A DNA stretch of 64,000 bases, taken from an uncultured Candidatus Saccharibacteria bacterium. Its GTDB lineage: Bacteria > Patescibacteriota > Dojkabacteria > J137. Shown here in pieces: positions 6,407-47,838 of this stretch. The position numbers and the translations under genes are program-made. The notes under the pieces were generated by a model, which had not been told where the DNA came from, made no database searches, and was given only the letters and a program-made list of their open reading frames with translations. Every line of letters begins with the position of its first letter. Within the stretch, counting starts at the first letter, position 1. The stretch covers positions 800,859 to 864,858 of the forward strand of contig OZ246402.1 in NCBI GenBank assembly GCA_965230975.1. Direction: 5' to 3'.

Positions 6407-6857
6407 GAGTTGGTAGCTCAGTGGTAGAGCAGTCCCGTTTTACGGGATTGGTCGGGTAAGTTGTAAAATGTTTCTGGGTGTACAAAATCATAGATTGTGT
6501 ACTAACCAAAAGCAAATTACTTTTTGCTTTCGGGGGTTGGTAGCTCAGTGGTAGAGCAGTCCCGTTTACGGGATTGGTCGGTCAAGTTCATTTATAAAGT
6601 TATGGGTTGGTAGCTCAGTGGTAGAGCAGTCCCGTTTTACGGGATTGGTCGGGTAAGTTGTAAAATGTTTCTGGGTGTACAAAATCATAGATTGTGTACT
6701 AACCAAAAGCAAATTACTTTTTGCTTTCGGGGGTTGGTAGCTCAGTGGTAGAGCAGTCCCGTTTTACGGGATTGGTCGGGTAAGTTGTAAAATGTTTCTG
6801 GGTGTACAAAATCATAGATTGTGTACTAACCAAAAGCAAATTACTTTTTGCTTTCGG
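6407..6857 (+). repeat. tandem array of four truncated tRNA-Lys-like 5' parts, each followed by a conserved spacer
   Basis: Units start at 6407, 6534, 6604 and 6731. Three are 127 nt (50 nt of tRNA positions 1 to ~52 ending GGTCGGG, then an identical 77-nt spacer). Unit 2 is a 70-nt deletion variant. Confidence 0.9.
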
Positions 6858-6929
6858 GGGTTGGTAGCTCAGTGGTAGAGCAGTGGCCTTTTAAGCCATT
6901 GGTCGGGGGTTCGAATCCCCCCCAACTCA
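6858..6929 (+). tRNA. tRNA-Lys (anticodon UUU), no encoded CCA
   Basis: Hand-folded cloverleaf: acceptor GGGTTGG/CCAACTC, D arm GCTC-AGTGGTA-GAGC, anticodon arm GTGGC-CTTTTAA-GCCAT, T arm GGGGG-TTCGAAT-CCCCC. Confidence 0.9.
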
Positions 6930-6951
6930 CTTTTCTTCATTTCAAAATCTC

Positions 6952-7206
6952 ATGTATTACGTTTATATTCTTTATTCTAAGTCTATAGATAAATATTATA
7001 TAGGTTATACCTCAAACCTTGAACTTAGAATAGCTCAACATAATTCTGGATTTCATAAATCAAAGTTTACAAGAAAAAACTCATCTGACTGGGATTTAGT
7101 TTATCAAGAAAAATTTAATTCTAAATCTAAAGCCATCATTAGGGAAAAGGAGATCAAATCTTTTAAAAGTAGGTCTTACATTCAATCACTAATAAAGAAT
7201 CTGTAG
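6952..7206 (+). CDS. GIY-YIG nuclease family protein (small, URI-domain only)
   Basis: YVYILYS (GIY), KYYIGYT (YIG), conserved Arg in LELRIAQHN, Glu in IREKEIK. The size of 84 aa is typical of stand-alone GIY-YIG proteins. Confidence 0.85.
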   Translation: MYYVYILYSKSIDKYYIGYTSNLELRIAQHNSGFHKSKFTRKNSSDWDLVYQEKFNSKSKAIIREKEIKSFKSRSYIQSLIKNL

Positions 7207-7257
7207 AGAAGTCCCGTTTTACGGGATTGGTCGGGGGTTCGAATCCCCCCCAACTCA
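7203..7257 (+). pseudogene. 3' fragment of a tRNA-Lys-like gene (D-arm 3' strand to discriminator)
   Basis: GTAGAGAAGTCCCGTTTTACGGGATTGGTCGGGGGTTCGAATCCCCCCCAACTCA. It has the same variant anticodon arm as the upstream 5' fragments and lacks the acceptor 5' strand. Confidence 0.85.
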
Positions 7258-7358
7258 CTTATAGTCAATTCTCCTTTAGTAATTTAAAAACAGCTTAGTG
7301 TAACTTCAAATCTACAAAAATAAAGTTTAGAATAGATCTATAACTTTTAGATCTCGTT

Positions 7359-8126
7359 ATGAACGAATATGCTTTAATTACCGGAGCGTCAAGTGGAATT
7401 GGATTAGCGTTAGCTTATGAATTTGCAAGTAAAGGTCATAATTTAGTCCTTGTTGCAAGGACTGAAGATACACTCAAAGAAGTTGCAAAAGCATTAGAAT
7501 CGCAATATGCAATTAAAACAGTAATTATCCCCAAAGATTTAAGTAAACCCGAATCGGCAATCCAATTATTTAAAGATATTGAAAAGCAGAATATATACAT
7601 TAAATACTTAGTTAACAATGCAGGAATTGGAGTTGGAGGCAAATATTTAGAATCTAGTATGGAAGATAATGTAAACTTAGTAAATCTCAATATAATTAAC
7701 TTAATAGAACTTACTCACTTATTTGCCAAGAAAATGCTTGCTACGAATGGCGGGAAAGTATTGAATGTTGCATCAATCGCTGCATTTTTTCCTGGGCCAT
7801 ATTTATCTACATACTATGCATCTAAAGCATTTGTATTAAGCTTTACAGAAGGATTAGCTGCAGAATATTCAAACTCTAACGTTACATTTACTGCACTATG
7901 CCCAGGTTTAACAGAATCTAACTTTGGGAAAAGAGCAGGGGTTGAGAAATCAAGCTTTTGGACACAAAAGAAAATGAGTGCCGAAGAAGTAGCAAAAATT
8001 GGGTACAGCGCTATGCAAGCTGGGAAAACTATAATAATTCCAGGTCTAAGTAATAGAATATTTGTAAGCATTGCTAAAAGAATTCCTAGAGCTTTATTAG
8101 CTCAATTTATTAAAAAACTTTTTTAA
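7359..8126 (+). CDS. short-chain dehydrogenase/reductase (SDR)
   Basis: TGASSGIG cofactor motif, NNAG, catalytic YxxxK (YYASK). Confidence 0.85.
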   Translation: MNEYALITGASSGIGLALAYEFASKGHNLVLVARTEDTLKEVAKALESQYAIKTVIIPKDLSKPESAIQLFKDIEKQNIYIKYLVNNAGIGVGGKYLESSMEDNVNLVNLNIINLIELTHLFAKKMLATNGGKVLNVASIAAFFPGPYLSTYYASKAFVLSFTEGLAAEYSNSNVTFTALCPGLTESNFGKRAGVEKSSFWTQKKMSAEEVAKIGYSAMQAGKTIIIPGLSNRIFVSIAKRIPRALLAQFIKKLF

Positions 8127-8127
8127 T

Positions 8128-9051
8128 ATGAAAAAACTGCTATTAATATCACTTGCAGTAATCTTATTGATAATATTAAGCTTTATTCTAAAGCCTAGTT
8201 CTTCTACCAAAACTCTATTTGGAATTGTTGGATACACACCTGTTGGGTTCCCAAATGCAGGTGTAGAAGAAATGAGCCAATACTTTAAAGATATTAATCA
8301 GTATTCAAACGTTTATGGAATTAATTCAGAGTTAACAGAGGCAGAACAGCTTGCTGCGCTTTTTACCAGAAATATTAGCAAACCACTTATTTTGGTTTTA
8401 GGATACAAAGACGTGAGTTCTACAGAAAAGATAATTAATATATTAAAAGAGAATCCCAATGTTAAGTATTTAGGATTGGGGAATGAAGTTAATTTAATAT
8501 TTAAAGAAGATGAAACTTTGTTTGATTCGTATTTAGCAAATTACCTCAGCTCTTACGACAAGATTAAAGCCATAAACAATCATGTGAAGATATTTCCTGT
8601 ATTTCAATATGAAGCTCTTATTGGCAAAGGAAAGATAATGGGTGGTGAGAATCAAAGTAACATTGAACTTATTAATAGATTTGCTAAAAAGATTGATCTT
8701 ATTGGGCTAACACTTTACCCACATTTTGATTATGCAACTCCACAAGATATTCCAACAAACTACTTTGAAGATATACTCAGGTTTAACTTACCAATTGGTG
8801 TTACAGAAACAAGTTGGCCATCTAGTGTAAATGCATTTTCAGGTGATTTAGCTTATTTAAATACAACAACACAAGAGCAAAAAGATTATGTTGGCTGGAT
8901 AAATATGCAAGATAAAAATAAATTTGAATTTATTAACTGGTTGTTTTTAAACGATATAGATCAAAACAATCAAGCATTTAAAGGTAGTGCATTAAGGGAT
9001 AAAAATGGTATTTCAAAACCATCATTTGACGAGTGGATTAAGTTAAAATAA
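8128..9051 (+). CDS. secreted glycoside hydrolase, clan GH-A (GH5-like) TIM barrel
   Basis: Signal anchor. GLGNEVN is a candidate acid/base Asn-Glu and GVTETSW a candidate nucleophile Glu, at the expected spacing. Confidence 0.55.
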   Translation: MKKLLLISLAVILLIILSFILKPSSSTKTLFGIVGYTPVGFPNAGVEEMSQYFKDINQYSNVYGINSELTEAEQLAALFTRNISKPLILVLGYKDVSSTEKIINILKENPNVKYLGLGNEVNLIFKEDETLFDSYLANYLSSYDKIKAINNHVKIFPVFQYEALIGKGKIMGGENQSNIELINRFAKKIDLIGLTLYPHFDYATPQDIPTNYFEDILRFNLPIGVTETSWPSSVNAFSGDLAYLNTTTQEQKDYVGWINMQDKNKFEFINWLFLNDIDQNNQAFKGSALRDKNGISKPSFDEWIKLK

Positions 9052-9119: not shown

Positions 9120-9194
9120 GGGTTTGTAGCTCAGTGGTAGAGCAGTCGCCTCTTAAGCGATTGGTCGAGGGTTCGAATCCCTCCAAGCCCACCA
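9120..9194 (+). tRNA. tRNA-Lys (anticodon CUU), CCA encoded
   Basis: Acceptor GGGTTTG/CAAGCCC, anticodon arm GTCGC-CTCTTAA-GCGAT, T loop TTCGAAT, 3' ACCA. Confidence 0.9.
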
Positions 9195-35182: not shown

Positions 35183-35312
35183 AGAAAGAGTGAAAACTAT
35201 ATCTGTATTTATTTATATTATATTTCAGATATATAAAATACCTAGTTAATTTCAATTCAATTAATAGTTGAGAGTAACATTTAAATTAAAACAACTCTTA
35301 AATAGTGAAAAA

Positions 35313-38300
35313 ATGCTATCAGTTAAGCATTCTTTTCTAACTTCATATAAAAATAATAAAAATAGATTCCACGTTATTATTGGTTTGGTTTTAGTTTTAA
35401 GCATTGCAGGATTAGTTTACGCAGCTACATCTACTAATAATATTGCTACCTCTTCTACAAATACAGCTACCACTGTTTCTACATTAAGAAGGGTAGTAAG
35501 AACAAGCGATGGAACATTACATGCATTTGTACAACTAGGTACAGAGACAATGACCTGTGGTGGAACACCAACAAATGGATTACTCTGGACTTATTCAACA
35601 GATAACGGGACAAATTGGACATGTGGTGGTCAGGTTTCTAACAATGTTAGTATTCTATTTCACGCTTCTGCCGTAGTAGATTCCTCAGATAATATTTATA
35701 TAGTATATTCACCTACAAATAGCGGAGCAAACAGCACTTACGATGCATATTATAGAAAACTAACAAAAGGGTCTGGGTCTACATGGACTTTAGAAAACGC
35801 ACAAACAGTATTAGATGCATCTGCATCTACTGGATTTAACTACGCAACCATAGAAATTGAAGGGACCGATAGACTCTGGGTTGCAGCAAGAAGGTTTGAT
35901 GGCACCAACTATCAAATATCAACTTACTATTCAGACGGGCTCACTACAAACCCTACCTGGGAAACATCTGAAAATGTATTAAGTGTAGCCGGTAATAGCG
36001 CCTCTTACCACATACCTGCAATGTTTAGATTCGGAAATAAAATAGGTATTGTTTATAACTCGCAACTGCCTACTGCAGTTATGAGATGGAGGTTTAGAGA
36101 AGATGGAGAATCTTTAACAAAATGGGCTTCTGAGACAATTATTAACACATTAACAGCTACTGGGCCAACATTTTCTGTAATTTCTGATAGTAATGCAAAT
36201 GCATATTTTGCTTTAAGTAGTACTACTAATGTTTTCTTTAACTATTGGAATGGTAGCGTTTGGTCTCAAAACGCAATAGTTAGTACGACTGCGCTTTCAA
36301 ACAGCTATGTATCTTTAACTACAAACGGTTCTAGCGTCAAAGTAATATATGGTGAATCTACAAATTTAGCTGCTGGTATTACAGGTCTAGGTATTTATAA
36401 ACTATCTTACAAAAATGGATATTTACCATTCTCCTCATCTGAATTTGATGTTACTGCTAGCCCTGTGGTTAGCTACCAAACCACATTTGATAAATATTGG
36501 AGTTACAATGGCACAACTTATACAAACGATACAACAGATGTTGCAAACGCAACTAGTGCAGATACACAAATGACATCTGGGATTGGGAGTATCGCATACT
36601 TTGGAAAACTTGAAAAATTTGACTCTATAGCTTGGGATATTTCTACAAGTGGAGTAACTGGTACTATAGTTTGGGAGTACTGGAACGGGAGTTCATGGAC
36701 AGCCTTAACTTTAAGAAACTCTTCTAGTCCTAACTTTACAGCAGATGGTTGGATAAACTTTGTAGACCCTGCAAACTGGGCAACAACTCAAGTTAATGCA
36801 GAAGGCACACCTTATTATTATGTTAGAGCTAGAACTAGTGTTGCATTTACAACTCAACCTGTAGGTGTTCAAATACTACCAATAACAGGCGTTTTTGGTG
36901 CTAACTTTATACAAAACAGTGTTAGTGGTAGTAGCTATGGTATTTGGACAGAAAACACTGCAAGCAGATTTGTTATTAAACAAGGATCTCTTAGCTATCC
37001 AGCAGTTACTGTAAATAATGCAACAAACACAAATGCAGTAAATAACTTGATAGGATACTCAACACTTGCTACAGCTACTCACCCAAGTACAATGAAAAAT
37101 ATATTACAAACATCTGACGGTACATTTCATGCCTTTATACAAGCTGGGAATAATGTTGCCTGTAATGACACGACTTATAATGGAGGGCTAGTATGGACAT
37201 ATTCTACAGATGAAGGAGTAAATTGGGATTGTGGTGCAGAACTTATGAGCGAAATTGTTAATGTATCTTATGCTTCTGCAGTAAAAGATAGTTCTGATAA
37301 TATTTATGTAGTTTATTCTACTTTAAATAATGCAGGTGGAGTTACAAATGACACCTACTATACAAAGCTAACAAAAGGAGTTGGATCAACCTGGAGCGTA
37401 GGCACTCCAGACTTAGTTTTAGATGCAAGTGGAACAACAGCATATACATACTCAACAGTTGAGATAGAAAATAATACAAGATTATGGCTTGCCACAAGGT
37501 ACTTTGACGGGGTTTATTATCAAATCAATACTTATTATTCATCAGACCTTTCGGGTGCTCCAAACTGGAGTGTTTCGAAAGCCCCATTAACAGCTCTTAC
37601 CGCAACTAGCACATATCTGTACCCTGCAATCGTTAGGTTTGGAAGTAATATTGGTGTAGCTTATAATGCTCAAACTAATAATCAAAGGTGGCGAGTTAGA
37701 TCTGATTCTGACCCGTTGAGCTCTTGGGGTACTGAAAACATTGTAAGCACAGAAGCAGTAGCTAGCCCAAGATTCTCAATTATATCTGATGGAAGTGATA
37801 ATGTTTACTATGGGTCCTTGGTAACATGTTCAATTTATACAACCTTTTGGAACGGTAGAACATGGGCTCCAACAACTACAGTAATAAACAACAACTGTAC
37901 TCAGGTAGCATCTGGCACTTACTTTAGCTTGTCTACTGATGGTACAAATTTAAGGTTATTTTATGGAGAGCCATTAAGTACTAGTACTGGAATTCCCCAA
38001 CATAGACTAGTTTATAGAACAGGTGTACCTCCATATAGTGCAAACAGCTTTGATTTAACTGCAACACAGGTAAATACAATGCATTCAACATTTACTAAGT
38101 ATTGGAGTTATGTTTCAAGTGTTTACCTAAACGACACTACAGATGCCGCAAGTGTGACAAGCGCAGATACTCAAATGCTAACAAACGCAGGAGATATTGC
38201 ATTTTTTGGATCCAGTTCAAAATTTGATACTGTTGCATGGGATGTTTCAACATTAGGAACTGTTGGATCCGTAATTTGGGAATATTGGAATGGCAGTGCT

Positions 38301-41300
38301 TGGGTAGAACTAACAGATTTTACATCAGTATCTAACCCATCTTTTTACAATGATGGATATATTAACTTTGTTACGCCAGTAAATTGGGCTACAACACAAG
38401 TTAATGCAGAAGGCACACCTTACTATTATGTTAGGGCTAGAGTAACAAGGTCATTTAGTGTAGCACCAGTAGGCATTCAGTTTACAACAATGCCATTAGT
38501 TTCTTGGGCAACTGCACTCCCGAATACAAATGCTAATAAAGTTGGTGCTATGTGGACTGAAAACTCAGTTTCATCTATGCCTATAAAATTTCAAAATATT
38601 AGCTTGGGTAGCAATTACACTAATTATAACGCTACGCAAACAGATGTTATTCCAACTTTAGGTTATTCAGCTAATGTCACTTCGCTGGGGCCAACAACTA
38701 TGGAAAGCTATGTTAAAACTTCAGATGGAACATACCACTCATTTGTGCAAGCTGGAAACAAGCAATTTTGTAACGATGCATCATCTACAGTAAACAATGT
38801 TGGTTTAATGTGGGTTTATTCTACCAATGGGTCGGATTGGAATTGTGGAGGTCAATTATCCGGTGATGTTACTAATTTTATGTATGCTTCCGCTACAACC
38901 GACTCTGCAGGAAACATTTATGTAGTTTATTCAGTAACCGCAAATGGAGCAAACATCGCATATAGCACTTATTATAGAAAACTAACAAAAGGGGTTGGTG
39001 CAACATGGACAATAGGAAATGCAAGTCAGGTTCTAAATGCTTCTGCAGGTGGTATTGCTTATTCATACTCTGTTATTAAAGCAGAATCAGATTCAAGATT
39101 GTGGTTAGCAACGCGTTACTTTGATGGTACAAACTATCAAATATCTGCTTACTATACTGATACTTTAGTTGATGATCCTACATGGAACCTTTCAACAATG
39201 AGTCTAAGTGTTGCGACTCCAAGCACAACCGATTTCTTTCCATCAATTGTAAAGTTTGGAAACAATATTGGAATAATTTATGCATCCCAATTCCCTGCAT
39301 CTTATCAAATGTGGAGATACAGAAGTAATTCTCAAGACCCTACTGTTTGGTCATCTCAAATGGTAGTTAATACAGAAAACTTATCTGTACCTGCTTATTC
39401 CACAGTGTCTGATAATGCAGGAAATGTTTATACAGTTTCAGTTAATGGTGCTAATGTTGTATTTAACTATTGGAATGGTAACGTTTGGTCACCCTCTGTA
39501 AACTTATCAACAACCGCCTCTACTGCTTATGCAGGTATTATTACAGATGGTTACAACGTTTGGGTTAACTATTTAGATACAACTGGGCTTATCTCATCTG
39601 GACTTGGATTAAGAAAATTTAGCTACAGAAAAGGAATACCTCCTTACACAGCTACAGAGTGGGAGGCTGCTACAAATTTGGTGACTAATCATGGATTTTT
39701 TGATAAATACTGGAGTTACTTTAGCTCTGTTTACTTAAATGACACAACCGATGTTACTTCTGTTGCAACAGCAGATACTCAAATGCTAAGAAATATAGGA
39801 GATATTGCATATTTTGGGAAATTAGAAAAATTTGATGCAGTATCTTGGGTTTTAAGCACAGCAGGTGTTGGGGGGAATGTTGTTTGGGAATACTATAATG
39901 GGAGTGTTTGGGCACCAATAGAGGATTTTGAGCATAACTTGAATCCTAATTTTATTGGTGCAACAACTGGAATTATATCTTTCAGTCCTGCAAGTGATTG
40001 GCAAACGACCACGGTTAACAGCGAACCCACACCTTATTACTATGTTAGAGCAAGGGTAATTGCAAATTACTCAACAACCCCTGTTGCATCACAAATTGTT
40101 ACAATTCCAAACTTAAATAGCTCTGCATTGCTACCTACTTTAGATGGAAACAATATGTCAGGGCTTTGGACAGAAAACTCGGTAGCTCCTATTCGAATAA
40201 GAAAATACGATATTACATTATCTACAGAAACACCTAACACAGCATCTGCATCTGATTTAATGCCTACCTTAAACTCGGCAACTTGGTATTCTTCAACAAA
40301 CCTAACTAATCAATCATCTACTCAAAGAAGTATTGTAAAAACATCTGATGGCACTATCCATTCATTTGTTTACACTGCTAACTCGCCAGCTTGTGGTGGC
40401 AACTCAACAAGCCAGGCAAATTCAGGTGGGTTAGTTTGGATGACCTCAAGTGATGAAGGTGTAACTTGGGATTGTAAATCTACTTTGTGGTCTGACCCGA
40501 CAATGGGGTACTACGCATCTGCAACAGTAGACAGCAACGACAATATTTATGTTGTTTATTCTCAAGCTGCAAATGGTGGGAGTGTTAATTACGATATTTA
40601 TTATAGAATGATTACAAAAACTGGACCTGGGACTTGGAGCATGGAACCTCAACAAATACTACTTGATTCAATTACTGCTAATACTGGGTACACTTATGCA
40701 ACAATAGAGGTAGAAGGTTCTAATAGACTTTGGGTAGCATTTAGAAATTATAATAATCCAAACTATCAAGTCTCTGTATATTATTCTAGCGCACTAACTT
40801 CTGAACCAGTTTGGACACTTTCAAGCTTAGCATTAGAAAGTGCAGGCACATCTACAAGTTACCATTATCCAACCATTGTACGTTATGGAAGTAATATAGG
40901 AGTTATTTATAGCAATGAAATTGGAGGTGTTTCTACCAGATGGAGATCTAGAGCCGACACAGATGGTTTAACAACATGGGGAACAGAAGCAACAATTATG
41001 GCATCTGCTTCAACAGGGCCATTATTTTCTGCAGTTGGTAGTGATGCTGGTGAAATCTATTTAAGTGTTGGCTCTGCTGCAACTGTTTACTTTACATCAT
41101 GGAATGGAAGTTCTTGGTCAAGTAGAGCAACATTATCTTCAACTGCTATTACAAATGGATTTACAAATGTAAGTATGGTTGGAACAACTGCATATGTTTA
41201 CTATACCAATGCAAGTGGTTTGAGTGCCGGATTACCAGGTAATAGAAAATTAGTATATAAAAGAGGTGTTGCCCCATACTTAGATGCAAACTTTGATGTA

Positions 41301-44300
41301 TCAGAAACAAGTATTGTTTCTTACCACTCACTATTTGATAAAGTTTGGAGTTATGTATCTTCAGTTTACGCAAACGAAACTACAGATGCTTCAAATACAA
41401 CAAGTGCAGATACTCAAATGGTAAGCCAAATAGGGGATATTATATATTTAGGTAAAACTTCTAAATTTGATAATATCTCTTGGGACTTATCTACATTGGG
41501 TACAAATGGAATAATAAGATGGGAGTATTATAATGGTGCTTCTTGGAAAGCAATAAATAAATATTTAGGTGTATTAACTCCATCATTCACAGGAGATGGT
41601 GCAATTTCATTTGTTCCGGCTCAAGACTGGGCACAAACAACAATTAACGGAGAGGGAACATCTTATTATTACGTAAGAGGGGTAGTAACAAGAGCATTTA
41701 GCGTTGTACCAATTGGAGTTCAGTTTGCAAGTATTCCATTACTGTCTCAATTTACAAGCATTGCTAAAGCTAACAACATTTACTACTCATGGACAGAAAA
41801 CTCTGCATCTAACTACAGAGTTAGATTTTCAGCATACATATTTAATGTTGCTCCAAACACACCAACCTCATTGGGCGCTAGTGCAGTAGTAGATGGATCT
41901 CCAACAAAAAACAATCAACCCGAATTTATATTTACAACAAGTGATCTTAACTTAGGAGATACTTCAACATATACTATTCAAATTGATAACGATAGCGATT
42001 TTTCATCTCCAGTAGTAGATTACACTTCTGCATTTACATTAAATGGAGTTAGAGGCTTTGCAGTAGGGCAAGCAGTTGGTAGTGGAATTTACACTACAGG
42101 TTCGCAAGGGCAAACATTGACAGACGGAGATTATTACTGGAGAGTTAAAGCAAGTGACTTAGCAGGTTTAGAATCCGGGTTTGCAGTAGCAAACAGCGGA
42201 AGTGTTGCGTTTAAAATAGATACTGCAAACCCGGCAACAAATGCAAGCAGTATTTTAATGTTAAAAACCGCTGGTGGACCTGGAGTTAACTCTAATGGTT
42301 GGACAAATAACGCATCTCCTTATTTTTCTTGGACACCTGGTGTAGATAACGTAGGTGGTTCTGGAATTTTTGGTTATTGTGTTTATTTAGGAACAGATTC
42401 TAATGGTAATCCAGAAACTAGCAAAGGCTTGTTAGGAACATCACCTGCAACTTTGGTAGATTCAACTTGTCAATTTATAACTACAACTACATCAATTGAT
42501 TTTACCAACGCTAACTTAAAAGGTGGAACATGGCTTACAACATCTTCTAGCCCATATTATATAAACATTAAAGCTATAGATATTGTTGGTAATATATATA
42601 CAACTTCAAGTGCGCAATTTCAGTTTAGGTTTGATAACGTTGCACCAACTAACGTAGCTTTCATAAGCACCGCTGGTGGAACATTTAATAATGTAGCAGA
42701 TATGAGCTTTTCGTGGCCAACAGCAGGTTTAAACACATCATCAGATGCAACATCTGGAGTATTGGGTTGGCAATATGCAATTAATATAACAAGTGGTAGT
42801 TGGCAAGGCACAACAGATAGTACAGAACTAGACGAGAGATATATACCAACAAGTGATAGCAATTACAGCTTAACAAATGTTCAAGATGCAGGTTCTATTG
42901 TGACTGGTAGCAATACAATTTACTTTAGAACAATTGACCAGGCGGGGAATTATTCATCTGAGGGCACAGTTAGAACAGGTGTATTGCAGTTTGGTGGAGC
43001 TGCACCAATGTTCCCACCACTTTCTCAAGTAACAGTAACACCATCCGTGGGAGTATCAAATAATTACGAATTATCTTGGCCAGAAGCAATGTCTGGATCT
43101 GGTGGAGATATTTCAAATTATTACTATATGATAAATATAACGCCACCAACGGTTTTAAGTACTATAACAACAAACCCTGCAACATTTATAAACAACAACT
43201 TAAGTTTAGGAGTTACTGCAAGATCTTTACCAAACGTAAATAGAGGAACGAATACCGTATATGTTGTAGCAGTAGACGAAGATGGACATTATTCACCATC
43301 TAATTATATTACCGGAACATTTGAATTGAATTCAACAGAGCCGGACAATCCAACACAACTTACAGCATCAGATGCATCTATAAAATCTGAAAACAGATGG
43401 ATGGTTACATTAACATGGATTAAACCAGCATACGAAGGTGCAGGAAACTTAACATACTTGGTACATAGATCTTTAGATGGAGTAAGCTTTAGCTTGGTAG
43501 GTACAACTACAAGTTTGTCTTATGTAGATAACCCAGATGAAAGTAGACTATATTATTACAAAGTTTATGCAAAAGATGGAGCTAACCAAACATCGTCCGG
43601 TACAAATGCTGTTTCTGAAACGCCAACAGGTCGGTGGACAGTACCTCCTACACTAGACAATGAGCCAGAAGTTACAAATATTACTACTAAGAAAGCAAAA
43701 ATATCTTGGACAACATCAAGAAAAGCAGATTCTAAAGTAGCTTATGGTACAGAAAGTGGAGTTTACTTCCCGGTTGAACCTAGTACATCTGATTTAACCC
43801 CGGCACACGAAATAAATTTAAATGGTTTACAACCAAGTACTCAATACTATTATATTGCAAGATGGACAGACGAAGATGGTAATACAGGTTCGTCAACAGA
43901 ATATAGCTTTGTAACACAACCTGCCCCAAGTGTTAAAGATGTAGTTGCAAGTAACGTTGGTTTAACATCTGCTATATTAAGATACACAACCTTAGGTGCA
44001 AGCAAAGTAAGGATATTTTATGGAACAACAACATCTTTTGGAGGTTTGAAAGAGGTTTCTACTTCTACTAGCGAAACAGTTCAAACTACAGAAATAACAG
44101 GATTGTTAGATGGTACAAAATACTATTATAGAATAGATACTTTAGATGAAGAATCAGCTCAATACGAAGGAACAATTTTAGACTTTACAACACTACCTAG
44201 ACCAAAAATTAATAATGTTAGAGTACAGCAAGTTAGAAATACCGCACAGTCAACTGTTTTAATAAGCTGGCAAACAAATACGGAAGTATCTTCTATAGTT

Positions 44301-44876
44301 ACATACTATCCGGAAAATCAACCAGGACTTTCTACAGATGAAGTAAATGTCACCTTAACAAAAGGGGATCACAGTATGATAATTAGAGGTTTGCTACCTC
44401 AAACAAATTACAATATTATAGTTAAGGGAAGAGACAGAATGGGAAACGAAGCAGTATCTGATGTTCAAAGATTAACAACTGCAACAGATACTAGACCGCC
44501 GGTATTAAGCAACATTAAAATTGAAGGCGCAATTTCAAAGTTATCAAGTAGTTCTGATAATACTCAAGTTGCTCAAATAGTGGTTAGTTGGAATACCGAT
44601 GAGCCAGCTACATCTCAAGTTGAGTTTGGAGAAGGCACAGGTACAACTTATTCTCAAAGAACACAAGAAGATACTAATTTAACAGTAAATCATTTGGTGG
44701 TAATAACAGGTCTTACACCTTCAAAGGTTTACCACTTAAGAATACTAGCTAAAGATAAAGCAGAGAATTTAGGTAGATCTGTAGATACAGTTACAATTAC
44801 GCCAAAAGGAACGGATAATGCATTGGATTTGGTTTTATCTAGTTTGCAACAAACCTTTGGATTTTTAAATAATTAA
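35313..44876 (+). CDS. giant surface protein: signal anchor, four ~536-aa BNR/Asp-box-containing tandem repeats, C-terminal Ig/Fn3-like domain series
   Basis: I prefer the ATG at 35313 over TTG 35268. The repeat landmark TSDGT starts at 35502, 37110, 38718 and 40341. Each repeat has an Asp-box SxDxGxxW (YSTDNGTNW and variants). Four clear Fn3-like units fall after ~43620. Confidence 0.85.
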   Translation: MLSVKHSFLTSYKNNKNRFHVIIGLVLVLSIAGLVYAATSTNNIATSSTNTATTVSTLRRVVRTSDGTLHAFVQLGTETMTCGGTPTNGLLWTYSTDNGTNWTCGGQVSNNVSILFHASAVVDSSDNIYIVYSPTNSGANSTYDAYYRKLTKGSGSTWTLENAQTVLDASASTGFNYATIEIEGTDRLWVAARRFDGTNYQISTYYSDGLTTNPTWETSENVLSVAGNSASYHIPAMFRFGNKIGIVYNSQLPTAVMRWRFREDGESLTKWASETIINTLTATGPTFSVISDSNANAYFALSSTTNVFFNYWNGSVWSQNAIVSTTALSNSYVSLTTNGSSVKVIYGESTNLAAGITGLGIYKLSYKNGYLPFSSSEFDVTASPVVSYQTTFDKYWSYNGTTYTNDTTDVANATSADTQMTSGIGSIAYFGKLEKFDSIAWDISTSGVTGTIVWEYWNGSSWTALTLRNSSSPNFTADGWINFVDPANWATTQVNAEGTPYYYVRARTSVAFTTQPVGVQILPITGVFGANFIQNSVSGSSYGIWTENTASRFVIKQGSLSYPAVTVNNATNTNAVNNLIGYSTLATATHPSTMKNILQTSDGTFHAFIQAGNNVACNDTTYNGGLVWTYSTDEGVNWDCGAELMSEIVNVSYASAVKDSSDNIYVVYSTLNNAGGVTNDTYYTKLTKGVGSTWSVGTPDLVLDASGTTAYTYSTVEIENNTRLWLATRYFDGVYYQINTYYSSDLSGAPNWSVSKAPLTALTATSTYLYPAIVRFGSNIGVAYNAQTNNQRWRVRSDSDPLSSWGTENIVSTEAVASPRFSIISDGSDNVYYGSLVTCSIYTTFWNGRTWAPTTTVINNNCTQVASGTYFSLSTDGTNLRLFYGEPLSTSTGIPQHRLVYRTGVPPYSANSFDLTATQVNTMHSTFTKYWSYVSSVYLNDTTDAASVTSADTQMLTNAGDIAFFGSSSKFDTVAWDVSTLGTVGSVIWEYWNGSAWVELTDFTSVSNPSFYNDGYINFVTPVNWATTQVNAEGTPYYYVRARVTRSFSVAPVGIQFTTMPLVSWATALPNTNANKVGAMWTENSVSSMPIKFQNISLGSNYTNYNATQTDVIPTLGYSANVTSLGPTTMESYVKTSDGTYHSFVQAGNKQFCNDASSTVNNVGLMWVYSTNGSDWNCGGQLSGDVTNFMYASATTDSAGNIYVVYSVTANGANIAYSTYYRKLTKGVGATWTIGNASQVLNASAGGIAYSYSVIKAESDSRLWLATRYFDGTNYQISAYYTDTLVDDPTWNLSTMSLSVATPSTTDFFPSIVKFGNNIGIIYASQFPASYQMWRYRSNSQDPTVWSSQMVVNTENLSVPAYSTVSDNAGNVYTVSVNGANVVFNYWNGNVWSPSVNLSTTASTAYAGIITDGYNVWVNYLDTTGLISSGLGLRKFSYRKGIPPYTATEWEAATNLVTNHGFFDKYWSYFSSVYLNDTTDVTSVATADTQMLRNIGDIAYFGKLEKFDAVSWVLSTAGVGGNVVWEYYNGSVWAPIEDFEHNLNPNFIGATTGIISFSPASDWQTTTVNSEPTPYYYVRARVIANYSTTPVASQIVTIPNLNSSALLPTLDGNNMSGLWTENSVAPIRIRKYDITLSTETPNTASASDLMPTLNSATWYSSTNLTNQSSTQRSIVKTSDGTIHSFVYTANSPACGGNSTSQANSGGLVWMTSSDEGVTWDCKSTLWSDPTMGYYASATVDSNDNIYVVYSQAANGGSVNYDIYYRMITKTGPGTWSMEPQQILLDSITANTGYTYATIEVEGSNRLWVAFRNYNNPNYQVSVYYSSALTSEPVWTLSSLALESAGTSTSYHYPTIVRYGSNIGVIYSNEIGGVSTRWRSRADTDGLTTWGTEATIMASASTGPLFSAVGSDAGEIYLSVGSAATVYFTSWNGSSWSSRATLSSTAITNGFTNVSMVGTTAYVYYTNASGLSAGLPGNRKLVYKRGVAPYLDANFDVSETSIVSYHSLFDKVWSYVSSVYANETTDASNTTSADTQMVSQIGDIIYLGKTSKFDNISWDLSTLGTNGIIRWEYYNGASWKAINKYLGVLTPSFTGDGAISFVPAQDWAQTTINGEGTSYYYVRGVVTRAFSVVPIGVQFASIPLLSQFTSIAKANNIYYSWTENSASNYRVRFSAYIFNVAPNTPTSLGASAVVDGSPTKNNQPEFIFTTSDLNLGDTSTYTIQIDNDSDFSSPVVDYTSAFTLNGVRGFAVGQAVGSGIYTTGSQGQTLTDGDYYWRVKASDLAGLESGFAVANSGSVAFKIDTANPATNASSILMLKTAGGPGVNSNGWTNNASPYFSWTPGVDNVGGSGIFGYCVYLGTDSNGNPETSKGLLGTSPATLVDSTCQFITTTTSIDFTNANLKGGTWLTTSSSPYYINIKAIDIVGNIYTTSSAQFQFRFDNVAPTNVAFISTAGGTFNNVADMSFSWPTAGLNTSSDATSGVLGWQYAINITSGSWQGTTDSTELDERYIPTSDSNYSLTNVQDAGSIVTGSNTIYFRTIDQAGNYSSEGTVRTGVLQFGGAAPMFPPLSQVTVTPSVGVSNNYELSWPEAMSGSGGDISNYYYMINITPPTVLSTITTNPATFINNNLSLGVTARSLPNVNRGTNTVYVVAVDEDGHYSPSNYITGTFELNSTEPDNPTQLTASDASIKSENRWMVTLTWIKPAYEGAGNLTYLVHRSLDGVSFSLVGTTTSLSYVDNPDESRLYYYKVYAKDGANQTSSGTNAVSETPTGRWTVPPTLDNEPEVTNITTKKAKISWTTSRKADSKVAYGTESGVYFPVEPSTSDLTPAHEINLNGLQPSTQYYYIARWTDEDGNTGSSTEYSFVTQPAPSVKDVVASNVGLTSAILRYTTLGASKVRIFYGTTTSFGGLKEVSTSTSETVQTTEITGLLDGTKYYYRIDTLDEESAQYEGTILDFTTLPRPKINNVRVQQVRNTAQSTVLISWQTNTEVSSIVTYYPENQPGLSTDEVNVTLTKGDHSMIIRGLLPQTNYNIIVKGRDRMGNEAVSDVQRLTTATDTRPPVLSNIKIEGAISKLSSSSDNTQVAQIVVSWNTDEPATSQVEFGEGTGTTYSQRTQEDTNLTVNHLVVITGLTPSKVYHLRILAKDKAENLGRSVDTVTITPKGTDNALDLVLSSLQQTFGFLNN

Positions 44877-44877
44877 A

Positions 44878-47838
44878 ATGGGTGACCCAATAATAAAAAT
44901 ACAAAACATTAATAAAGTATTCACAGTTGGTGATCAAGATTTGCATATTTTAAAAGATATATCTGTAGATATTGAGAGAGACGATTTCGCAATCATTTTG
45001 GGGCCATCAGGATGCGGAAAATCCACTTTATTACATACAATTATTGGATTAGAAGAGCCTACATCTGGTAGTTTAATATTTAGTGGGGTAGATATTTACA
45101 AAGGTAAAACTGATGATGATAGAAGTGTTTTTAGAAAAACACATATTGGAATGATTTACCAACAACCAAACTGGGTTAAAGCCCTACATGTTTTAGATAA
45201 TGTAGCGTTACCTTTAGAAATGCTTGGAGAAGATAAAGAATCTGCCAGAAAAAAAGCATTGTCTGCATTAGGATCTGTATCTATGGATGAGTGGGCATAT
45301 CACTTACCAACATCTCTATCTTCTGGTCAACAACAAAGAATTGCACTTGCCCGGGCTTTAATTACAGACCCAGAAGTAATAATTGCAGATGAGCCAACAG
45401 GAAACCTTGACTACGAAGCTGGACAAGCATTAATGAATCTTTTAAAGATTTACAACACTCACTTTAAGAAAACAGTATTAATGGTAACTCACGACTTGGA
45501 ATACCTATCTTTTGCCAAAACTGCCATTAAACTTTTTGATGGTAAATTAGTTGGTGTTTATCAAGATGGAGATAAAGATGAACTGCAACATAATACTAAG
45601 ACTAAAAAACTACCTGAAATGGCACTACCAGATATTGCAGTAAATACTGCAGCTATTGCTAAGGCTCAAGATGAAAAATCACAAGCAAATGGTGTTGGGA
45701 AACTTAACTCAAGTAAAGTTGGACAGGATGACAAGCAAGATTTAGCAGACTTTAATAAAGGTTTCTTTCAAAAGCAATCTTTAGAAAAAGTTGCTACAAG
45801 TGGACCTAAAATTAAGCCAAAAACTCCTTTAGCACAAAAGATTATAAGGATTATAAAAAACATACCTTCTAATATAAAAGGTGCCTTAATACTTAGTAAA
45901 CAGATCTTTGTAATAGTATTACTTTTAACTATTTACTTAATAAAGCTAATCATAGCTACAGTAGTAAAAAGATTAATTCCAGGTTTCATTATAAATGTTA
46001 TTGGAAAGCCATTAATGCAAATAGATCTATTAGTAACAAAATGGATTGATCCAAGCTTTTCAAAAACAATTCCGAAAATTGAATTAATAAGTATTGCAGT
46101 TAAGAACATGCTTGCAAAAAAAACTCGAACTGCAGTTACAATTGGTGGTATGGCTGTAGGTATTGCTGCAATTGTATTTTTGGTTTCACTGGGTTATGGA
46201 TTACAAGATGTAGTAATTAGTAGAGTAGCCCGGTTAGACGAGATGAAACAAGCAGACATATCTCCTCAAACAGGAGGTAATGTAAGTTTAAATGACGAAA
46301 CAATTGCTAACTTTTCTAGAATACCTAACGTATCAATGTTAATGCCGTTAATTTCCGTGGTAGGAAAAATCTCTTACCAAAACTCTGTTACAGATGTTGC
46401 AACATATGGTGTTACATCTGATTATTTAAAACAGTCTGCTGTAAAACCATCTTTCGGAACAATCTTTGAAAGCAATGAAACAGTTGTAAGTGTTAATAAA
46501 AGTGATTTAGTTGATCAAGGCAAGGTTGCAGGACTAAGTACAGAAAATGCAATTGTAAAAGTTGGTGAAAAAATTTCAGATGTTACGTTTAACATAACAA
46601 CTAATGTTTGGGCAACAGTACGCTCTGGCCCTGACTTAAAATCAGAGATTTTAGGTTTTACTAAAAGAGTAGAGGGTAATTTAACAGGCGAAGAGGTTTG
46701 GGGAGTAGAAGACAATTGGGTTAGAACAAAATATTCATTATGGAAAGAACAATCATGCTCAACTATTTATAATTTAGACTGCGCAGATGGGAAGTATTTA
46801 AAAATAAAAGACTCTCTTGGAACTCAAATACAGCAAAGTGGATATGTTTATAATGCTGATTTACAAATTTCTAATCGAAAATTAAAACCAGATAATTCAA
46901 CCGCCAATGTGTTGGGGCTATCAACAGATAGCAATGTCAAAGTTAATGGTCAAGTATTAGGTGTTTCAGATGAGCAATGGGTAGAACTACCATCCGAATC
47001 TTCAACTTCATCTTTGGAGCAAGTTACAACCATAGAGCTTTCACCTCTTGCAAAAAAAGAAGCTGTTGTAAATGTAGCAATGCTTAAAGTACTGGGAATT
47101 GAACCAAGCGAAGCAGTTGGGAAATCTTTTGCAGTATCTTATGTAGTAGTTGGTAATTTATTAAATCAAGATAACGAAAAAGTCGAATCTGCAATTTCAG
47201 ATTACAAGATTATTGGTGTTGTTCCAGAAGATAAAACTCCTTACTTTTATGTACCATTTATTGATTTAAGATCTTTAGGTATTGCTAGTTATTCTCAGTT
47301 AAAATTAGTTGTTAATGACTCTGCAAATTTAGCTGGTGTTAGAAACCAAGTAGAGAGCTTAGGTTATAATACTGTCTCTGTTTCCGATACAGTGGCTCAA
47401 ATAGAATCCTTATTTTCAACATTAAGAACGTTACTCGCATTGGTAGGGTCTGTTGCATTAGCTGTTGCATCTTTAGGAATGTTTAATACATTAACGGTAT
47501 CTTTATTAGAAAGAACTAGAGAGGTAGGGTTTTTAAGAGCTATAGGTATGACATCTTCAGAAGTTCAAGAGCTATTCTTAACAGAGTCCTTAACAATGAT
47601 GTTCTTTGGTGGGTTTGGTGGAATTTTTGCAGGGTTAGTATTTGGGAAACTAGCTAGTTTAATAGTTTCTTTGATAGCCGCCAGAGATAATGCTGGATTC
47701 TTAGATATATCAAGACTGCCTTTATCATTCTTATTAATAGTATCTGCCTTAGCATTATTGGTTGGTATTGCAACTGGAATTTACCCAGCAAGAAGAGCAA
47801 AAAAGATATCTGCACTAAATGCCTTAAGATACGAATAA
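44878..47838 (+). CDS. fused MacB-type ABC exporter (ATPase + FtsX permease) with enlarged extracytoplasmic domain
   Basis: Walker A GPSGCGKST, signature LSSGQQQR, Walker B IADEPTGNLD. This is followed by a TM helix and a ~430-aa external region including an SH3b-like stretch (WATVRSGPDLKSEILGF...WVRTKY). The FtsX C-terminus ends ALNALRYE. The ATG lies 1 nt after the giant gene's stop. Confidence 0.85.
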   Translation: MGDPIIKIQNINKVFTVGDQDLHILKDISVDIERDDFAIILGPSGCGKSTLLHTIIGLEEPTSGSLIFSGVDIYKGKTDDDRSVFRKTHIGMIYQQPNWVKALHVLDNVALPLEMLGEDKESARKKALSALGSVSMDEWAYHLPTSLSSGQQQRIALARALITDPEVIIADEPTGNLDYEAGQALMNLLKIYNTHFKKTVLMVTHDLEYLSFAKTAIKLFDGKLVGVYQDGDKDELQHNTKTKKLPEMALPDIAVNTAAIAKAQDEKSQANGVGKLNSSKVGQDDKQDLADFNKGFFQKQSLEKVATSGPKIKPKTPLAQKIIRIIKNIPSNIKGALILSKQIFVIVLLLTIYLIKLIIATVVKRLIPGFIINVIGKPLMQIDLLVTKWIDPSFSKTIPKIELISIAVKNMLAKKTRTAVTIGGMAVGIAAIVFLVSLGYGLQDVVISRVARLDEMKQADISPQTGGNVSLNDETIANFSRIPNVSMLMPLISVVGKISYQNSVTDVATYGVTSDYLKQSAVKPSFGTIFESNETVVSVNKSDLVDQGKVAGLSTENAIVKVGEKISDVTFNITTNVWATVRSGPDLKSEILGFTKRVEGNLTGEEVWGVEDNWVRTKYSLWKEQSCSTIYNLDCADGKYLKIKDSLGTQIQQSGYVYNADLQISNRKLKPDNSTANVLGLSTDSNVKVNGQVLGVSDEQWVELPSESSTSSLEQVTTIELSPLAKKEAVVNVAMLKVLGIEPSEAVGKSFAVSYVVVGNLLNQDNEKVESAISDYKIIGVVPEDKTPYFYVPFIDLRSLGIASYSQLKLVVNDSANLAGVRNQVESLGYNTVSVSDTVAQIESLFSTLRTLLALVGSVALAVASLGMFNTLTVSLLERTREVGFLRAIGMTSSEVQELFLTESLTMMFFGGFGGIFAGLVFGKLASLIVSLIAARDNAGFLDISRLPLSFLLIVSALALLVGIATGIYPARRAKKISALNALRYE

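Follow-up and report, generated by a model that had tools for sequence, protein, structure and literature searches.

A tRNA-Lys gene beside a small GIY-YIG nuclease gene and hairpin-bearing pseudo-tRNAs: a candidate tRNA-gene-resident cassette

Why does a small GIY-YIG gene lie between an intact tRNA gene and a truncated copy of the same tRNA, and why do this copy and four further fragments upstream carry an anticodon arm that differs from that of the intact gene? We addressed these questions at a locus within a window of 64,000 nt, the whole stretch of DNA that was analysed (contig OZ246402.1, positions 800,859 to 864,858, forward strand). The locus is composed of the following features, in window coordinates:

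6407..6456, + strand: first pseudo-tRNA 5′ fragment (tRNA positions 1 to ~50), starting with GAGTTGG
6457..6533, + strand: 77-nt leader copy; in the relative L004 the homologous sequence is the one native region 5′ of the tRNA
6534..6581, + strand: second pseudo-tRNA 5′ fragment, with a hairpin at 6560-6573 whose loop is 1 nt shorter (GTTTAC)
6582-6603, + strand: short spacer of 22 nt directly 3′ of the second fragment
6604..6653, + strand: third pseudo-tRNA 5′ fragment, with a hairpin at 6630-6644; it opens a 127-bp tandem unit
6654..6730, + strand: leader copy
6731..6780, + strand: fourth pseudo-tRNA 5′ fragment, with a hairpin at 6757-6771
6781..6857, + strand: leader copy immediately 5′ of the functional tRNA-Lys
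6858..6930, + strand: functional tRNA-Lys(UUU), native allele (ARAGORN; Rfam, 77 bits)
6931..6951, + strand: trailer of 21 nt between the tRNA-Lys and the nuclease ORF
6952..7206, + strand: stand-alone GIY-YIG nuclease ORF of 84 aa, SLX1/UPF0213 type (Pfam PF01541)
7203..7260, + strand: pseudo-tRNA 3′ fragment (tRNA positions 18-73 plus CTT)
6953..7280, + strand: 328-bp segment missing from strain L146; it spans the ORF body, the pseudo-tRNA 3′ fragment and a further 20 nt

ARAGORN, Rfam and Pfam agree with what an earlier note on this DNA had described, namely an intact tRNA-Lys(UUU), an 84-aa GIY-YIG ORF and a 3′ tRNA fragment, and the four upstream 5′ fragments (at 6407, 6534, 6604 and 6731) are present as well. 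The perfect 35-bp direct repeats reported at 6898-6932 and 7226-7260 are real; they are nested in a longer repeat (6875-6943 versus 7203-7271) with 84% identity and a spacing of 328 bp. The T arm and the acceptor 3′ strand of the 3′ fragment are identical to those of the functional tRNA-Lys, and six substitutions separate the anticodon arms, as the note had stated. However, the D arm, which it had also taken to be identical, differs by a C to A exchange at 7209 in the D stem. In the 3′ fragment a hairpin at 7212-7226 substitutes for the anticodon arm, and in the first 5′ fragment a hairpin at 6433-6447 stands where the anticodon arm should be; the latter fragment yields a weak Rfam tRNA match of 23.8 bits and opens with GAGTTGG in place of GGGTTGG. 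Within the leader copy at 6457..6533, TGTAAAAT is similar to an extended -10 element. The nuclease ORF ends within the 3′ tRNA fragment: its stop codon TAG (7204-7206) is part of the sequence GTAGAG. Simple consensus scans found neither a terminator nor a convincing separate promoter for the ORF, which is therefore probably co-transcribed with the tRNA-Lys.

With its cargo between an intact tRNA and a 3′ tRNA fragment, the locus looks like a classic att duplication, and the repeats could accordingly be read as attL and attR of an ordinary island left by an integrase at a tRNA 3′ end. ORF and domain annotation of the locus revealed no recombinase or integrase gene between or beside the repeats: a single ORF lies between them, and the neighbouring genes encode a Na/H exchanger and an SDR oxidoreductase. 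The ‘island’ would measure only 328 bp with the 84-aa nuclease as its sole ORF, the repeat extends into the D arm, the anticodon arm is substituted, and the same miniature layout recurs in dozens of genomes. Since a recombinase gene is lacking both at the window locus and at the related loci, the scar of an integrase-type island is already contradicted, and we regard it as extremely improbable.

The 84-aa protein matches the Pfam GIY-YIG family PF01541 over residues 1-70 (E=1e-15, 58 bits at a cut-off of 22.6). In an alignment of 28 homologues Y16, G18, T20, R26, H30, E65 and K69 are invariant and Y5 and Y19 nearly so; the window protein has all of these residues, and the conserved Y, YxGxT, R, H and E positions are kept in the alignment with the UPF0213 structures 1zg2 and 1ywl. 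These two were also the closest entries in a profile comparison with the PDB (E=1.5e-15 and 1.8e-13, respectively), followed by SLX1 (7cq2, E=4e-6). Domain match and catalytic-core residues place the protein, as far as its sequence can tell, in the GIY-YIG superfamily, and a single domain of about 80-110 aa with UPF0213 and SLX1 as nearest structures is what characterizes the stand-alone SLX1-like/UPF0213 proteins. The whole protein corresponds to the catalytic domain: its 84 aa hold no auxiliary domain and no separate DNA-binding domain. No NCBIfam model matches it.

We then asked what the variant arm represents. The earlier note had proposed that it marks an older tRNA-Lys allele which was replaced by the nuclease-linked copy via a compensatory swap. 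Indeed both arms are of equal length, both have TTTTA in the loop and the differences lie at symmetric positions. But the nuclease-free relatives L005 and L148 are cassette-free sites that carry the native, intact allele: the tRNA-Lys(UUU) at 6858-6930 has exact counterparts in L005 and L096, and in L148 a single T-loop base is different. An uninterrupted variant allele did not occur among 45 related metagenomic tRNA-Lys genes with an identical 26-nt 5′ end (0/45): all of these have normal loops of the CTTTTAA type, and none has a GIY-YIG gene nearby. The variant arm, TCCCGT-TTT-ACGGGA, is instead a member of a hairpin family TCCCG(A)-loop-(T)CGGGA which is common to elements at unrelated tRNAs and substitutes for tRNA stem-loops independently of tRNA identity, at least eight being represented (Asp, Ala, Val, Lys, Arg, Asn, Leu and Met). 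The note was right that the variant arm is not a normal anticodon loop; the arm can form a stem of as many as 9 bp around a loop of 3 nt, and so departs from such a loop even more than the 6-bp stem with a 5-nt loop that the note had considered. Closure of the G32-C38 pair leaves a loop of 3 to 5 nt, which is incompatible with decoding. The older-allele reading is thereby contradicted and has in our view become very improbable. Our analysis shows that the variant anticodon arm in the window is the conserved hairpin and that the intact tRNA is the native gene.

The hairpin is strongly enriched at these loci. The exact arm sequence occurs 4 times in the window (0.01 expected by chance), and all 5 hairpin copies in the 64 kb lie at the nuclease locus. 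The 3′ fragment and the 5′ fragments share the variant arm, as had been noted, though not in exactly the same form in every copy: the one at 6534 carries the 1-nt loop deletion. Every one of the five copies is truncated, so that neither a complete cloverleaf nor a 7-nt anticodon loop can form, and their Rfam tRNA scores (21-24 bits) remain under the 29-bit threshold. Across 427 kb the motif was found 145 times (2.7 expected), clustered around the ORF stop and 5′ of the tRNA. Its outer 5 bp are conserved and the inner pairs covary; pair 7, for example, is complementary in 60/64 cases (T-A 29, A-T 16, C-G 15). The hairpin takes the place of the anticodon arm at Lys, Val, Arg, Leu, Asn, Ala and Met tRNAs, where the flanks match the tRNA up to position 26-28 and again from 42-46; elsewhere it stands in for the D or T arm or is located in the variable loop. 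ARAGORN calls some of the hairpin-bearing copies as tRNAs, for instance as 86-87-nt tRNA-Asn and tRNA-Asp, as tRNA-Cys or as ‘tRNA-???’.

We compared 80 homologous GIY-YIG loci, mostly from Bacteroidota and Ignavibacteriota. A tRNA gene on the same strand lies within 400 bp upstream of the ORF in 57/80 loci (within 150 bp in 43/80) and just downstream in 6/80; the hairpin is found at the ORF stop codon in 59/80, often with the stop codon within its loop, and in total 78/80 loci show an adjacent tRNA, a hairpin at the ORF stop, or both. Of 58 loci, 44 have a 3′ copy of the upstream tRNA behind the ORF. The homologues thus overwhelmingly adjoin tRNA genes, with tRNA-derived repeats after them, which supports the view that insertion or recombination at a tRNA gene shaped the window locus; a family scattered over unrelated loci without tRNA repeats, named beforehand as the outcome that would speak against this, is not what we found. 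Both orders, tRNA-ORF-pseudo-tRNA and pseudo-tRNA-ORF-tRNA, were observed, which would be expected if a crossover can fall on either side of the hairpin. In several loci ORF units are repeated in tandem downstream, with periods of 303-406 bp, and upstream arrays resembling that of the window occur in about 16 of 58 loci. The fragment junctions are imprecise, with the last tRNA position of the 5′ fragments lying within 50-59 and the first of the 3′ fragments within 9-20, 42-46 or 59-60.

Presence/absence polymorphism beside the conserved tRNA-Lys was seen among close relatives, as L146, L148 and L005 are without the nuclease gene. The near-identical strain L146 lacks exactly positions 6953-7280, a stretch of 328 bp that corresponds to a single repeat period. 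L146 does not qualify as a clean empty site, however, because its upstream neighbourhood is different and its tRNA-Lys is a hybrid. L096 retains only a remnant of the cassette and in L137 the pseudo-tRNA has decayed. L004 has the leader 5′ of the tRNA with no 5′ fragment before it. In L001 one 127-bp unit is present, compared to 4 in the window, a difference that may stem from assembly collapse. We also considered an element with its own leader and tRNA that is bounded by two hairpins. It would fit the nested left and right arrays. Against it stand the missing fragment in L004, the restriction of left units to about 16/58 loci, and the frequent mismatch between the hairpins on the two sides.

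Taken as a whole, we lean slightly towards reading the locus as a member of a widespread set of small nuclease cassettes resident at tRNA genes, whose gain and loss would proceed by recombination via the duplicated tRNA segment; the hairpin would be a putative cis site or immunity mark of the nuclease. Such a cassette would comprise (i) a stand-alone GIY-YIG nuclease (SLX1/UPF0213 type, 80-95 aa) encoded directly behind a functional tRNA and in its orientation, (ii) a duplicate of this tRNA, partial or complete, which follows immediately on the ORF stop or overlaps it and in which a stem-loop, usually the anticodon arm, is exchanged for the TCCCG(A)-loop-(T)CGGGA hairpin, and (iii) often either upstream arrays of hairpin-bearing 5′ tRNA fragments with leader or downstream tandem units of ORF, pseudo-tRNA and terminator. 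The unit of ORF and pseudo-tRNA may be gained, lost and amplified through the duplicated tRNA 3′ segment, by Campbell-type integration and excision or by homing-type repair. The homology could come from the conserved tRNA sequence, and the structure-specific nuclease could stimulate recombination by cutting at or near the stem-loop. The hairpin would then be either a cis-acting site of the nuclease or a feature that renders the disabled copy uncleavable, and replacement of the anticodon arm would keep the extra copies from acting as tRNAs. That the arm difference might mark what the nuclease recognizes, or what confers immunity, had been suggested earlier; conservation of the hairpin throughout the family makes this more plausible. 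Several points stand against the cassette model. The 84-aa protein does not have the DNA-binding domain of sequence-specific homing endonucleases, cutting in the anticodon arm would leave the adjacent functional tRNA a target, and the junctions are, as described, imprecise. The model also gives no detailed origin for the upstream array of 5′ fragments, and the frequent position of the stop codon in the hairpin loop could point to a role at the RNA level.

In an RNA-level system the pseudo-tRNAs would be tRNA-like RNAs, signals for mRNA processing or stability, or the RNA partner or substrate of the protein, and the DNA repeats would merely encode them. Covariation of the inner stem pairs requires a folded single strand, and in many loci the stop codon is formed in the hairpin loop or by the TAG of the D arm, so that the hairpin belongs to the mRNA. 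The full-length hairpin-bearing tRNA-likes found in L053 and L136 fold as cloverleaves, and the cassette is inherited vertically under purifying selection. A link to RNA metabolism has also been suggested by a prokaryotic protein in which an Slx1-like domain is fused to a TrmH-like tRNA Gm18 methyltransferase (Dunin-Horkawicz et al. 2006, PMC1564403). Most copies, however, are truncated at variable positions and without a partner for the acceptor stem, and therefore cannot fold as tRNA-likes. The conserved part is a 5-6-bp sequence and not structure alone, and presence/absence as well as tandem amplification in register with the repeat are events at the DNA level. No Rfam family other than tRNA matched the window region (E≤1) or 20 related loci (gathering threshold). 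To our knowledge, the characterized GIY-YIG enzymes act on DNA. We therefore consider an RNA-level system unlikely, if with some real weight.

A domesticated host function was also considered, in which nuclease and decoy tRNA copies would maintain or regulate tRNA copy number or guard tRNA genes from integrating elements. Between orthologous loci of different genera the cassette is syntenic and under strong purifying selection, with dN/dS values of 0-0.10 for the nuclease (the pairs L013/L052, L021/L064 and L021/L048 were excluded, as indels put them out of register). Synteny and purifying selection would agree with a function that is useful to the host or was domesticated long ago no less well than with an actively mobile element. 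Moreover, nuclease sequences group by tRNA identity: the nearest neighbour belongs to the same tRNA type in 43/60 cases, compared to 18% by chance. The family is nearly absent from viral contigs, where only 8 distant relatives were detected, which makes phage carriage unlikely as the main vehicle. A precedent is the role of SLX1 in maintaining rDNA copy number in yeast (cited in PMC1564403). On the other hand, the distribution is patchy within the window's own clade (L005, L148 and L146 without the cassette, the remnant in L096, the decayed copy in L137), no partner genes were found, and PADLOC gave no convincing defence-system model, its best match being a weak PDC-S14 hit (E=0.0026) that we do not take as meaningful. 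All in all, we judge a host function of this kind to be rather unlikely.

Comparison with known systems gives partial matches to the tRNA-resident cassette. SegB in the tRNA gene cluster of T4 (PMC2330249) is likewise a GIY-YIG gene among or beside tRNAs outside any intron or intein, and free-standing GIY-YIG genes of T-even phages are also inherited together with flanking tRNA sequence. SegB-driven segmental amplification has been reported as a nuclease-linked tandem amplification of the neighbourhood (PMC13096335), and arrays are present at loci of the window type, too. In contrast to the phage-borne Seg genes, the cassette is chromosomal in bacteria, its protein is a bare 84-aa catalytic domain and it includes hairpin-substituted pseudo-tRNA copies. 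We know of no such pseudo-tRNAs at Seg loci. As for free-standing homing endonucleases, the gene lies beside a conserved target and is polymorphic for presence and absence, but the separate DNA-binding domain for a long asymmetric site, as in I-TevI and the Seg proteins, is missing. The hairpin in place of the anticodon arm of the disabled copies is the only feature that may correspond to homing immunity.

The UPF0213 (COG2827) proteins BH0048 (1zg2) and EF2693 (1ywl) and eukaryotic SLX1 agree with the window protein in domain, size and conserved residues. SLX1 cleaves DNA according to its structure, at branches and stem-loops, and not at a particular sequence; such structure-based cutting would suit a hairpin or cruciform site. 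Integrative elements at tRNA 3′ ends show the same arrangement of intact tRNA, cargo and 3′ fragment as direct repeat, and are gained and lost in register with the repeat like the cassette. The direct repeat of the tRNA 3′ part is thus shared with integrase-type islands, whereas the recombinase gene is not: the cassette has no integrase and a cargo of only ~250 bp, its duplicate is rewritten with the conserved hairpin, and 5′ fragments are arrayed upstream. REP/RAYT transposases and IS200/IS605 elements similarly tie a small nuclease-type gene to a conserved short hairpin and leave extra hairpin copies without an adjacent gene, as in the cassette loci. Their enzymes are HUH/Y1 transposases, however, whereas that of the cassette is a GIY-YIG nuclease and its hairpins lie within tRNA scaffolds and only at the tRNA locus instead of being spread genome-wide.

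The 2006 phylogenomic analysis of the GIY-YIG superfamily (PMC1564403) describes the stand-alone proteins without mentioning tRNA adjacency or a hairpin motif, and a full-text literature search for GIY-YIG and tRNA found no published description of the architecture of nuclease and hairpin-bearing pseudo-tRNA. We tentatively entertain the idea, though it falls a little short of what we would favour, that these loci constitute a so far unrecognized class of elements occurring in the FCB group (Fibrobacterota-Chlorobiota-Bacteroidota), some other phyla and at least one Patescibacteria-like lineage. In such a class, a bare SLX1-like GIY-YIG nuclease would be combined with a hairpin of conserved sequence by which stem-loops of tRNA copies are overwritten, and would work by hairpin-directed recombination or conversion, or in a function at the tRNA locus, for which there is no characterized precedent.

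For the very common stand-alone bacterial GIY-YIG proteins (UPF0213/COG2827), a large subgroup gains a concrete and testable context: an address just 3′ of tRNA genes, the 5-6-bp base of the hairpin as candidate substrate and, as a characteristic by-product, pseudo-tRNAs with an overwritten anticodon arm. Should the hairpin or stem-loops of tRNA genes prove to be what the nuclease acts on, the cassette would represent a compact system, selfish or serving maintenance, that remodels tRNA loci, and possibly also a source of a small structure- and sequence-specific nuclease. For genome annotation the consequence is that some called tRNAs are in fact hairpin-bearing copies. Loci with hairpins and pseudo-tRNAs are also prone to break short-read assemblies.

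The arrangement at the tRNA-Lys(UUU) gene of the window had been described in the earlier note as an intact tRNA, an ORF, a 3′ tRNA fragment, a 35-bp repeat and upstream tRNA fragments, and all of these were found:

6858–6930: intact tRNA-Lys(UUU), called by ARAGORN and Rfam (77 bits)
6952–7206: 84-aa ORF with a Pfam GIY-YIG match (E = 1e-15)
7203: start of the 3′ tRNA fragment
6898–6932 and 7226–7260: perfect 35-bp repeat, within a 69-nt repeat of 84% identity

The copies of the 69-nt repeat lie 328 bp apart, start to start, and the TAG stop codon of the ORF is the TAG in the D-arm sequence GTAGAG of the 3′ fragment. Upstream we found four 5′ tRNA fragments spanning tRNA positions 1 to ∼50: three are units of a fragment plus a 77-nt leader, and in the remaining, short unit the arm is one T shorter. 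The arm GTCCCGTTTTACGGGAT occurs in four exact copies (0.01 expected by chance), and all five copies of the hairpin motif described below that are present in the 64-kb window map to this locus. The stretch at 6457–6533, directly 3′ of a truncated 5′ fragment, contains (A)GTTGTAAAAT or GTTGTTTTAAAAT, as does the same position in L072 and L133; this trio comprises one Patescibacteria-like genome and two unrelated loci. Since the element looks like an extended −10 promoter element, each upstream unit may have its own promoter.

Species-representative genomes were scanned with a GIY-YIG alignment, and the best 80 of >564 relatives were analysed. Bacteroidota and Ignavibacteriota account for most of these 80 loci; Calditrichota, Fidelibacterota, Chlorobiota and Desulfobacterota contribute a few. 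A tRNA on the same strand ends ≤400 bp upstream of the ORF in 57/80 and ≤150 bp upstream in 43/80, the identities being Asp, Ala, Val, Lys, Asn, Arg, Met, Leu, Pro and Thr; of the 58 loci that have such an upstream tRNA, 44 carry a copy of its 3′ part after the ORF. An adjacent tRNA, a hairpin at the stop codon, or both were present in 78 of the best 80 loci.

When the tRNA copies were aligned to their tRNAs, the anticodon stem-loop proved to be swapped for a hairpin with a conserved base; we refer to such partial copies as pseudo-tRNAs. Examples by tRNA type are:

Val: TCCCGAC-TGATAA-GTCGGGA
Arg: CCCCGAT-TCGT-ATCGGGG
Leu: TCCCGAT-TATA-ATCGGGA
Ala: TCCCGAA-AGCG-TTCGGGA
Lys: TCCCGAC-ATATAA-GTCGGGA
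window: TCCCGT-TTT-ACGGGA

The motif TCCCG-N3–14-CGGGA was found 145 times in 427 kb of homologous loci vs 2.7 times in resampled sequence, clustering ≤100 nt from the ORF stop and 300–600 nt upstream of the stop, i.e. before the intact tRNA. Of 89 distinct hairpins, 71 have A-T as the sixth pair, 6 C-G, 3 G-C and 3 T-A, the last being that of the window; the seventh pair is complementary in 60/64 (T-A, A-T or C-G). The picture is of a hairpin that folds, with a base fixed in sequence and an inner stem and loop that are free to vary. No Rfam family except tRNA matched.

The hairpin mostly abuts or overlaps the ORF stop codon: loci of the Asp group have the stop inside the hairpin loop, and other loci, the window included, use the D-arm TAG of the tRNA as stop. 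The duplicated segment often extends through the tRNA trailer and terminator, 33–45 nt past the tRNA end, and in several loci the whole unit of ORF, pseudo-tRNA and terminator is repeated in tandem with a period of 303–406 bp. Window-like upstream arrays (leader, tRNA 1–26, hairpin, tRNA 44 to ∼50–59) occur in ∼16 loci and precede the intact tRNA in L026, L042, L045, L072 and L133, among others. A minority (L136, L062, L063, L065) shows the reverse order of pseudo-tRNA, ORF and intact tRNA. Elsewhere (L051, L064, L071, L077, L035) the D or T arm gives way to the hairpin, or the hairpin is found in the variable loop and ARAGORN continues to call the copy a tRNA. In L077 (2663–2869) and L035 (2068–2635) the calls are tRNA-Asn/tRNA-Asp of 86–87 nt; their anticodon arm is intact, the variable or T region holds a CCCCGAAAGCTTTCGGGG or TCCCGAC…GTCGGGA hairpin, and they may be functional tRNAs into which a hairpin was inserted. 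In L133 (2860–5255) acetyltransferase, TIR-domain (ThsB-like) and SUKH-4 genes come after the tRNA-Val cassette, a defence or immunity-type neighbourhood.

The window protein consists of the catalytic domain alone and retains the conserved residues (Tyr, Y-x-G-x-T, Arg, His, Glu). A profile of 28 homologues matched the UPF0213 structures 1zg2 (E = 1.5e-15) and 1ywl, then SLX1 (4e-6); no NCBIfam model matched, and IMG/VR yielded only eight distant relatives. The nearest nuclease neighbour has the same tRNA type in 43/60 cases vs 18% by chance, a figure confounded by host relatedness. In orthologous, syntenic loci of different genera dN/dS of the ORF is 0–0.10, which shows purifying selection. 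Such long-term synteny and strong selection fit a function of the cassette (ORF plus hairpin pseudo-tRNA, with or without terminator) that is useful to the host as well as they fit a selfish one.

Relatives of the window locus were found by tracing orthologues of both flanking genes. L005 (exchanger 74% identical) carries an uninterrupted tRNA-Lys(UUU) identical to the intact gene of the window, with neither a GIY-YIG gene nor tRNA fragments at this locus; in L148 (SDR 73% identical) the same tRNA, with one T-loop difference, is directly followed by the SDR gene. In L096 the same tRNA and its trailer are followed by just ATGTATTA, apparently what is left of the ORF start. L137, from one common sample with the short-read contig L001, has the same tRNA, a GIY-YIG gene 74% identical and a decayed pseudo-tRNA downstream. 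When metagenomes were scanned for the 26-nt 5′ end common to both arm types, 45 tRNA-Lys genes came up, all with C32/A38-type loops and none (0/45) with the variant arm or a GIY-YIG gene. Among the loci compared, the variant arm was present only where the nuclease gene was. Because the relatives and the 45 metagenomic genes carry the normal arm and the variant occurs only with the nuclease, the intact allele is the native tRNA-Lys and the variant arm is not ancestral. The earlier note had read the variant arm as an older tRNA-Lys allele that was replaced; uninterrupted copies were found for the intact allele (L005, L148) and not for the variant among the 45 metagenomic genes, and we reject the replacement on these comparative data.

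Several further features were seen at these loci. On the reverse strand, L096 contains a ∼100-bp direct repeat (…tagtttgaataatgggtctgtagcgaagtgctcaataaggcaatgtatttgttaaca…) that comes after the trailer and ATGTATTA, ∼260 nt beyond the tRNA. In the window, L001, L146, L147 and L148, tRNA-Lys(UUU) and a 307-aa gene are separated by the SDR oxidoreductase gene (window 7359–8126); L005 (2497–2566) lacks this gene, and its tRNA is directly followed by the orthologue of window 8128–9051. Downstream of tRNA-Lys(UUU) in L006 (7950–7995), a 57%-identity relative, there is a perfect GC-rich hairpin, accgggcggg-ccttttaagg-tcccgcccggt, probably a bidirectional terminator; its loop resembles the tRNA-Lys anticodon loop, possibly by chance.

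L146, whose SDR protein is 100% identical to that of the window and whose downstream DNA is nearly identical, carries the window-type tRNA 3′ half and trailer up to window position 6952 and resumes at 7281. It thus lacks exactly 6953–7280, i.e. 328 bp, the repeat period, so that the polymorphic unit comprises ORF body, pseudo-tRNA and 20 nt, in register with the duplicated segment. This is the pattern expected if the unit was integrated or excised when the 3′ segment of the tRNA recombined with its copy; a 78-bp target duplication would be equally compatible. The site is not a clean empty site, as a Lys(CUU)-like 5′ part is joined to the window-type 3′ half and the upstream genes differ (histone deacetylase-like, tRNA_edit, DUF5665). 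In this hybrid tRNA (2207–2279), located upstream of the SDR gene, the resemblance to Lys(CUU) extends over the 5′ part and the anticodon arm, apart from one anticodon-stem change; the 3′ half and trailer match the window tRNA-Lys(UUU), and the acceptor stem has a U6-C67 mismatch, which suggests recombination between tRNA-Lys genes in this population. In L001, which otherwise matches the window exactly, a single upstream unit stands in place of four, which may be real variation or assembly collapse.

The data show the architecture, the conserved and covarying hairpin, the native status of the intact allele, the presence/absence polymorphism and purifying selection; that the protein cleaves, what it cleaves and how recombination proceeds are inferred as follows. 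In the simplest account that covers five features together, the cassette would recombine with the resident tRNA gene via common tRNA sequence. The five are the duplication of the tRNA 3′ segment, the occurrence of intact and disabled copies in either order, the ORF units in tandem, the presence/absence difference in register with the repeat, and the spread over tRNA identities. A crossover 3′ of the hairpin would leave the upstream copy intact, one 5′ of it the downstream copy, and unequal exchange would give arrays. Imprecise fragment junctions count against this mechanism. A classical integrase-type island was rejected, there being no recombinase gene. The SLX1-like nuclease is the only protein always alongside the hairpin, and stem-loops and junctions are among the DNA structures that SLX1 enzymes cut; we therefore propose that the nuclease drives recombination by acting either at the hairpin or at tRNA-gene stem-loops, with the hairpin in the latter case marking an uncleavable copy. 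The covariation of the hairpin and the stop codons within it would also fit an RNA-level role. Dunin-Horkawicz et al. (PMC1564403) noted a prokaryotic Slx1-like domain fused to a homologue of tRNA Gm18 methyltransferase.

For the proposed mechanism, the nearest functional precedent is SegB, a free-standing GIY-YIG endonuclease of the T4 tRNA cluster with a reported role in segmental amplification (PMC2330249, PMC13096335). Classical homing endonucleases have a DNA-binding domain that the cassette protein lacks, a further point against the mechanism. We would place the locus with nuclease-based selfish cassettes at conserved genes, and there is a substantial chance that the cassette is a distinct class. 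In open-access papers and bioRxiv we came across no account of stand-alone GIY-YIG genes that are linked to tRNAs and accompanied by pseudo-tRNAs with the hairpin; as the search covered these sources, an earlier description elsewhere is possible.

The window also holds a tRNA-Lys(CUU) gene (9120–9194) in which 25 of the first 26 nt are identical to tRNA-Lys(UUU). A 21-mer common to both probably explains why the short-read contigs L003, L004 and L002 break inside the tRNA. Two consecutive very large ORFs of 3202 aa and 986 aa lie on the + strand at 35268–47838.
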